Assembly (NCBI RefSeq): GCF_003334335.1
Contig: NZ_QOWQ01000186.1
Reading direction: 5' to 3' (one strand)
DNA from: Escherichia coli
Lineage (GTDB): Bacteria; Pseudomonadota; Gammaproteobacteria; Enterobacterales; Enterobacteriaceae
Length of the DNA stretch: 460 nucleotides
Part shown: one piece after another, positions 1 to 159 of the stretch
How the letters are laid out: every line of letters starts with the position of its first letter
Position numbering within the stretch: position 1 is the stretch's first letter
Program-made: the position numbers and the translations under genes
Notes under the pieces: generated by a model
Told to the model about the DNA's origin: nothing
The model's database searches: none
The model's input: the letters and a program-made list of their open reading frames with translations, nothing else

Positions 1-120
1 GCGCTGGCGTGCTGGGGAATTGACAGATAAGCAGAATATTTTGCTGAAAAATGCGGTTTGCTCACACGGACGGATAACACGAAATCCTGCGAACTGACAA
101 AAACTAAGTGAATAAAAGTA

Positions 121-159
121 AAAACCCCGTTTGTTGGCTGCAAGCGGGGTTTTGTGTTT
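121..159 (+). terminator. Rho-independent (intrinsic) terminator hairpin, possibly bidirectional
   Basis: Seen directly: 121-129 AAAACCCCG is the exact reverse complement of 145-153 CGGGGTTTT, giving a 9-bp stem with a CCCCG/CGGGG core. The 15-nt loop (130-144) can pair further (T131-A143, T132-A142, G133-C141 plus G-U wobbles), leaving a ~5-nt apical loop. The stem is followed by the T-rich run TTTTGTGTTT (150-159). An A-rich tract (112-124) precedes the stem, so the reverse strand also sees a U-rich tail. Sits between the upstream region and the ORF1 ribosome-binding site. Confidence 0.75.

Follow-up and report, generated by a model that had tools for sequence, protein, structure and literature searches.

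The stretch of DNA analysed here (460 nucleotides, hereafter "the window", to which all coordinates refer unless stated otherwise) belongs to the lysis cassette of a lambdoid (Stx-type) Escherichia coli prophage. With high probability, it comprises the end of the lysozyme gene R in frame 1, followed by a non-coding 3′ flank and by an intrinsic terminator that borders an accessory-gene slot. The finding as such matters little, since it comes down to a terminator behind a gene end that is already annotated, in one of the best-studied of all phage gene cassettes. The residual interest lies in some 50 non-coding bases which are constrained like amino-acid-determining positions, in a spacer adjoining the slot where Stx phages carry ant and small membrane proteins. 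The features discussed below are the following.

1–30, + strand: terminal part of R, the lysozyme (endolysin) gene, encoding ..A L A C W G I D R and closed by the stop codon TAA at 28–30; annotated CDS, frame 1
20–25, + strand: TTGACA hexamer formed by ATT GAC A of the R coding sequence; matches by chance and is not conserved as a −35 element
31–52, + strand: invariant non-coding block 1 (GCAGAATATTTTGCTGAAAAAT); pi = 0.022
41–97, + strand: short frame-2 ORF (TTG41 to TGA95–97), judged non-coding; disrupted in 21 of 59 variants
53–72, + strand: hypervariable linker with at least four haplotypes; pi = 0.283, 14 of 20 sites polymorphic
73–89, + strand: invariant non-coding block 2 (GATAACACGAAATCCTG); pi = 0.012
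90–104, + strand: variable linker containing the frame-2 stop TGA 95–97; pi = 0.177
105–116, + strand: invariant non-coding block 3 (TAAGTGAATAAA), with a mosaic breakpoint right after it; pi = 0.009
121–162, + strand: predicted intrinsic terminator (terminator scan and folding) with a 14-bp stem and a 5-nt loop (121–153), followed by TTTTGTGTTT
187–369, + strand: first accessory small ORF, 60 aa, with a hydrophobic C-terminus and AAGGGAG upstream; annotated CDS

The complete window matches phage PhiR12_1 (PV340549.1, 23416–23875) as well as several E. coli chromosomes at 100% identity. Of 5426 complete E. coli genomes, 2121 contain positions 1–200, at a median of two copies and a maximum of 12, and positions 31–120 alone occur as one copy in each of 316 phage records, including 933W, VT2-Sakai and phiON-2011. 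According to the annotated records, the late operon is ordered Q, sialate esterase, small genes, holin S, lysozyme R, a pair of small hypothetical genes and Rz, all encoded on the same strand. The same S-R-Rz/Rz1 order on the late-operon strand is known from Stx phages (933W, VT2-Sakai and the H-19B type) and from the K-12 prophage Qin (essQ-rrrQ-rzpQ); at the DNA level, the 177-aa R of this locus is 83% identical to K-12 rrrQ and about 94% identical to 933W R.

Two observations on the distribution of the cassette may be added. The lysozyme of this E. coli phage is also found, at 90–95% identity, on contigs labelled Collinsella, Bacillota and Xanthomonas (L091, L094, L144, L146), which probably reflects contamination or mis-binned prophage DNA. 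Furthermore, the holin-R-Rz block of Sakai Sp4 (L149, 1184145–1186375) is inverted relative to the upstream esterase gene and flanked by copies of IS629 and ISEc8 and by pchA; Sp4 is, thus, a rearranged lysis cassette.

In positions 1–30, the final nine codons of R, a lysozyme of the SAR-endolysin type, are followed by its stop codon, all read in frame 1. The annotated lysozyme CDS (PhiR12_1, E. coli EC2) has its last base at locus position 6030, equal to window position 30, and the frame-1 stop at TAA 28–30 had been placed correctly in the initial annotation. Upstream of the window, the frame continues over a long distance to give an ORF of 177 aa (L001, 5497–6030), which matches the endolysin family phrog_7 in PHROGs (E = 1.1e-63), while its sole match in NCBIfam is an endolysin model with a score far under the cut-off. 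For comparison, relatives were collapsed to 57 unique variants, obtained from 80 viral contigs and from annotated loci. Diversity at the three codon positions of R among these variants (pi = 0.029, 0.038 and 0.159, respectively) is concentrated at the third, and the common variants up to position 27 are all found at multiples of 3 in frame 1, i.e., they are 3-periodic. The view that the region is simply a gene 3′ end plus its terminator, considered initially alongside a promoter with a structured leader, is borne out for frame 1 by TAA 28–30 and the conserved 177-aa lysozyme, but not for frame 2. Extension of the sequence upstream, which had been proposed as a check, reveals a long conserved ORF, namely that of the lysozyme, ending at 28–30, and this speaks against both the leader and the promoter.

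Frame 2 is indeed open from the window edge to TGA 95–97, with the translation as originally given, and it contains the codons GGA CGG ATA ACA CGA at 68–82, so that the suspicion raised by this cluster of rare codons was sound. A gene end at TGA 95–97, in contrast, is unsupported because the stop codon is not conserved, substitutions are not 3-periodic in this frame, and the third positions of R, which vary freely, are the second positions of frame 2. Upstream, the ORF extends over 87 codons only, nested out of frame within R. Its stop reads TGG in 46 of the 57 unique relatives (position 97 being G), its reading frame is interrupted by 1-nt indels at 29 and 47 among the relatives and by a change of CGA to TGA at 80–82 in some of them, and the three codon positions over 31–97 yield summed pi values of 2.0, 2.2 and 3.3, which amounts to a mild third-position excess only. 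The ORF (L001, 5834–6097; window −166 to 97) matches phrog_30041 and phrog_34797, both with no known function; most simply, these families derive from spurious calls and represent gene-caller output on conserved DNA. A related annotation is seen in phage CP-1639 (L004, 2606–3260), where two hypothetical CDSs on the minus strand are annotated across a truncated R region and the spacer; they are likely spurious, since the matching minus-strand ORF of L001 (5973–6353) crosses the terminator and the mosaic breakpoints.

The TTGACA hexamer is present at 20–25 on the + strand as described at the outset, and it had been taken as the possible −35 element of a transcript of roughly 110 nt ending at the terminator. 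We regard this reading as barely conceivable. It can draw on the fact that the hexamer is perfect in the window and still matches at five of six positions (TCGACA) in most relatives, and that a strong predicted terminator lies downstream. However, TTGACA is expected 0.42 times per 460 nt and occurs at least once in 67 of 200 shuffles, i.e., it is found at chance level, and it is located on R codons: position 21 is C in 42 of the 57 unique relatives, which turns the hexamer into TCGACA because this position is the synonymous third base of an R Ile codon. The observation that a good −10 element is missing also stands. The sigma-70 consensus scan of the + strand returned no passing site in the window, no −10 hexamer was found 16–18 nt downstream of TTGACA, where hexamers at 42–49, within TGCTGAAAA (42–50), match TATAAT at one to two of six positions, and the best candidate requires a 19-nt spacer and matches at three of six.

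A structured leader fares no better. The search of 1–160 for a leader or riboswitch family, suggested initially, found none: an Rfam scan of the window with E values up to 10 gave no family at its gathering score and returned terminator look-alikes only. The best hit was the rimP leader (RF01770), which shares with the window a CCCCG...CGGGG hairpin followed by a T run; it scores 27.5 bits versus a gathering score of 47, on the minus strand and over the hairpin only, so that the window is not a member of this family. Folding of 31–120 compared with shuffles gave z = −1.2 on the + strand and z = −0.1 on the minus strand, hence no significant structure on either, and RNAalifold on 34 variants gave a covariation term of −0.64, which is no covariation support. 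A long-range helix between 52–61 and 89–99, predicted from single-sequence folding, was rejected as it is uncompensated in the commoner haplotypes B and C. The promoter with its leader of about 110 nt is therefore not supported, given a chance hexamer on a synonymous site without a −10 element, the lack of an Rfam match, and no significant or covarying structure.

Neither of the upstream features highlighted in the initial annotation, TTGACA and the frame-2 ORF, rises above chance; both are by-products of the R coding sequence. This serves as a caution: a real gene in another frame can, in this manner, give rise to a perfect −35 hexamer as well as to an extended open frame. Positions 31–120 are very probably a non-coding spacer, transcribed as R's 3′ flank in the Q-antiterminated late operon, and contain no gene end, promoter or structured leader.

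The spacer constitutes extra DNA, because R overlaps Rz in Qin, in Escherichia albertii and in other genera. Specifically, rrrQ and rzpQ of K-12 Qin overlap by 4 nt, and in nearly all of 58 loci from other Enterobacterales genera the terminal ..CAGTGA of R overlaps the Rz start codon. Homology of the window's phage to E. albertii and E. coli E69 extends through R to position 35 and resumes at position 590 inside Rz; a junction of 63 nt in these two thus corresponds to 554 nt in the phage. Whereas R and Rz overlap by 4 nt in Qin, E. albertii and the other genera, their homologous parts are separated by those 554 nt in the phage, and the first five bases of block 1 (31–35) are the last stretch homologous to the ancestral start of Rz. 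Relatives share the window from position 1 to about 116, beyond which sharp breakpoints occur near 116–125, 162, 185 and 370; similarity to ant-carrying relatives ends at 116–125. The cargo beyond differs among relatives and consists either of the ant antirepressor gene, as in 933W-type phages, or of other small membrane ORFs. Spacer and hairpin very probably form the upstream edge of an accessory-gene slot which splits the ancestral, overlapping R/Rz junction.

The 60-aa ORF at 187–369 matches phrog_1115 (E = 1e-42), a family without assigned function. A second small ORF runs from 384 through the window end at 460 on to L001 position 6515; it encodes 43 aa with a hydrophobic segment and belongs to phrog_4906. 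Neither the 60-aa nor the 43-aa ORF gave a match in an NCBIfam search. In 933W-type phages, the 43-aa module is present as well, flanked by ant and Rz (ECs_5732 of Sakai Sp12), and in some relatives (L005, L008, L046, L047, L057, L074–L076) the 384–460 module precedes the 253–370 module. Since the small-ORF modules occur in opposite order in those relatives, the slot has been rearranged as well as swapped.

This arrangement is reminiscent of morons, which are accessory-gene insertions of lambdoid phages (Juhala et al. 2000, cited in PMC4104026). Morons, too, are extra DNA between genes that are adjacent in related phages, and alternative cargo (ant or small membrane ORFs) as well as sharp breakpoints are found in the R-Rz slot likewise. 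However, a classical moron carries its own promoter upstream and a terminator downstream, whereas in the window the hairpin lies upstream of the cargo and no promoter-like site is found on the + strand.

With regard to the origin of the spacer, it could be a degenerate remnant of the 5′ part of a different Rz (i-spanin) gene, left behind by a rebuilt junction. This would be compatible with the slot-edge interpretation, and we consider it conceivable, though rather unlikely. Positions 57–100 align to the ..SCSNASNLQNDNEVLRSDN.. coding segment of Rz genes of Enterobacter and Yokenella with a score of 33.5, compared with 18.8 ± 2.5 for shuffles (0 of 300 reaching it) and 20.5 for other Rz families, and the first five spacer bases match the ancestral Rz start. 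Yet, the match is short and needs frame-breaking indels, it loses strength in haplotypes B and C (2 of 300 shuffles) and disappears in haplotype D (53 of 300), and a decaying remnant would not exhibit the purifying selection that the blocks appear to be under. The Rz resemblance of 73–100 or 57–100 is a weak lead, and on origin only.

Turning to the downstream end of the spacer, a hairpin followed by a T run starting at position 121 had been recognised from the outset, and it is the sole terminator-like scan site in the window (121–153). It folds with −21.6 kcal/mol (z = −5.2) on the + strand versus −14.2 kcal/mol on the minus strand, and 0 of 200 shuffles are equally stable. The T-rich TTTTGTGTTT at 150–159 lies immediately 3′ of GCGGGG; the first four Ts of this tract double as pairing partners of AAAA 121–124 at the base of the stem, and the U tract as a whole is interrupted. 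Stem variants among relatives change G-C to G-U, U-G to U-A and U-A to U-G, with no pair changed on both sides; since these variants pair in + strand RNA and would be A-C mismatches on the minus strand, the hairpin most likely acts on the + strand. Taken together, 121–153 is most likely a strong intrinsic terminator, predicted from folding, on the late-operon strand.

In lambdoid late operons, Q-modified RNA polymerase reads through terminators. By analogy, Q-unmodified polymerase, such as would arise in the lysogen from read-through of upstream accessory promoters, would halt at the hairpin, ahead of the accessory genes and Rz, while Q-modified polymerase would pass it during lytic growth. 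Termination, Q read-through and the resulting insulator role at 121–153 are inferred on this basis. In ant-carrying relatives, the hairpin at the equivalent site is weak in its commonest form, which contains an A-C mismatch (z = +0.5). Because of this weakness, the spacer is not always accompanied by a terminator, and an insulator role may not apply generally.

The hairpin upstream of ant is situated about 25 nt past the equivalent of window position 116 and reads GGCACC-GTAAT-GATGCC in most copies (L016, L043, L059 and others; 933W = L089), giving an A-C mismatch on the + strand and a G-U pair on the minus strand; a few copies read GGTGCC. It was considered as a second, non-homologous + strand terminator and rejected, with the common GATGCC form performing no better than shuffles and only the GGTGCC variants pairing well. 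As a further observation on the window's own terminator, AACACGAAA in block 2 (76–84) is complementary to the U tract UUUUGUGUU (154–162) over nine pairs, one of them G-U, at a pairing energy inside the shuffle range in a 12-kb scan.

The three invariant blocks of the spacer stand out against its linkers. While four-fold degenerate sites of R have a pi of 0.187, appreciable polymorphism is confined to three of the 51 sites in the blocks, although the four-fold rate would predict it at about half of them; a naive binomial test gives P ~1e-12, a value that ignores linkage and recombination among prophages. Judged by this sequence variation, the blocks appear to be under purifying selection at the nucleotide level, and a plain untranslated spacer leaves them unexplained; presumably, they act at the RNA level in the 3′ UTR of R, via stability, processing or an RNA derived from the 3′ end. 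Coding in frame 2 cannot account for the constraint, because the blocks do not vary at third positions either and this frame is frequently disrupted. Invariance is just as marked in ant-type relatives, i.e., regardless of the cargo downstream, and since the blocks retain it whatever follows, their role would be tied to R or to the junction and not to the downstream cassette. By eye, no convincing LexA, DnaA, IHF, CRP, sigma-54 or sigma-E motif was found in the blocks, and an RNAduplex comparison of the blocks with 12 kb of late-region sequence gave nothing above shuffles.

Within frame 2, a short leader peptide starting at TTG41 was considered as an alternative. Ribosomes, possibly re-initiating once they have passed the R stop, would translate it from TTG41 to TAA113–115, where the ORF of most relatives ends after 24 codons. 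As that stop lies 6 nt ahead of the hairpin, a ribosome reaching it would affect termination. Of 59 unique variants, 38 have the ORF intact, an AAGCAG Shine-Dalgarno-like sequence lies 6 nt upstream of TTG41, several polymorphisms in 67–103 fall at frame-2 third positions, and PHROGs families exist on this frame. However, the remaining 21 variants (36%), the window included, are truncated or broken by TGA or TAA at 95–97, by CGA to TGA at 80–82, by loss of the TTG or by frameshifts, and the blocks downstream of the premature stops are nonetheless invariant. Furthermore, a TTG start with a weak Shine-Dalgarno sequence is involved, the middle of the peptide is hypervariable, invariant third positions in the blocks are not explained by coding, the hairpin is about 30 nt away from the stop in ant-type relatives, no alternative antiterminator pairing was found, and the PHROGs families are most simply the gene-caller output described above. 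A leader peptide is, thus, highly improbable, and it was rejected on account of the disrupted variants and their invariant downstream bases.

An alternative is that spacer and hairpin together constitute a small regulatory RNA of about 100–125 nt, either processed from the 3′ UTR of the R mRNA or transcribed from a weak internal promoter, with the blocks serving as seeds and the hairpin as terminator. Its appeal rests on the succession of invariant, apparently unstructured blocks between hypervariable linkers, an A-rich stretch right before the hairpin and then the strong hairpin itself on the + strand, which with its U tail provides a 3′ end feature of the sRNA type. Moreover, sRNAs are encoded nearby in the same late regions: Pas, AgvB and AsxR ahead of the holin, and HnrS beyond Rz. 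On the other hand, the U tail is interrupted, no promoter-like site is present on the + strand of the window, no Rfam family matches, no outstanding target was found in the late region, and the blocks are just as invariant in ant-type relatives with a weak hairpin. Searching full-text papers for the literal block and terminator sequences retrieved only primers for the Sp5 r-s knockout, and no Hfq-CRAC orphan peak falls within the Sakai R-Rz spacers, which is weak evidence as it covers lysogen conditions and orphan peaks only. RIL-seq data from EPEC are uninformative on this point, because EPEC PP2 is devoid of the spacer. We consider a small RNA improbable, and continue to read 31–120 as the non-coding flank of R.

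The known Hfq-binding prophage sRNAs of EHEC and EPEC (AgvB, AsxR, PasA–D, HnrS, StxS) share with the window their location in the same prophages at conserved late-region positions, as well as intrinsic terminators. They differ in that they map elsewhere, i.e., to the esterase-holin gap, downstream of Rz or to pR′, with none in the R-Rz spacer, and Rfam reveals no sequence similarity to the window. AgvB, AsxR and the Pas RNAs occupy the interval from the esterase gene to the holin (PMC4104026; 10.64898/2026.05.13.724894; PMC8550237), and a ylcI/ynfO-like gene downstream of Rz harbours HnrS/EcOnc10–12 at its 3′ end (10.1101/2025.11.27.690950). With these map positions, Pas/AgvB/AsxR and HnrS/EcOnc10–12 were rejected as the identity of the spacer; EcOnc35, positioned upstream of the Sp4 holin, and the unrelated hokW-sokW were rejected likewise.

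More broadly, the blocks together with the terminator may form a hitherto unrecognised functional RNA element, for which we see only a small chance; none of the literature searchable here describes an RNA or a function for the spacer blocks. If true, such an element would be present in about 40% of complete E. coli genomes and in the main Stx phages including 933W, and it would represent either a 3′-UTR-derived regulatory RNA or a control of lysis-mRNA stability or processing that tunes the timing of lysis or the expression of accessory genes.

The sole promoter-like site of the window, TAGTCA-18-TATACT, is found on the minus strand at 194–223. Both hexamers are within coding sequence, and their conservation is, therefore, uninformative. 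A putative antisense RNA from this site would start at about 187, extend across the 60-aa ORF's ribosome-binding site and its start codon, and run into the two-way hairpin to give about 75 nt, a layout that resembles an antisense or type I toxin-antitoxin arrangement.
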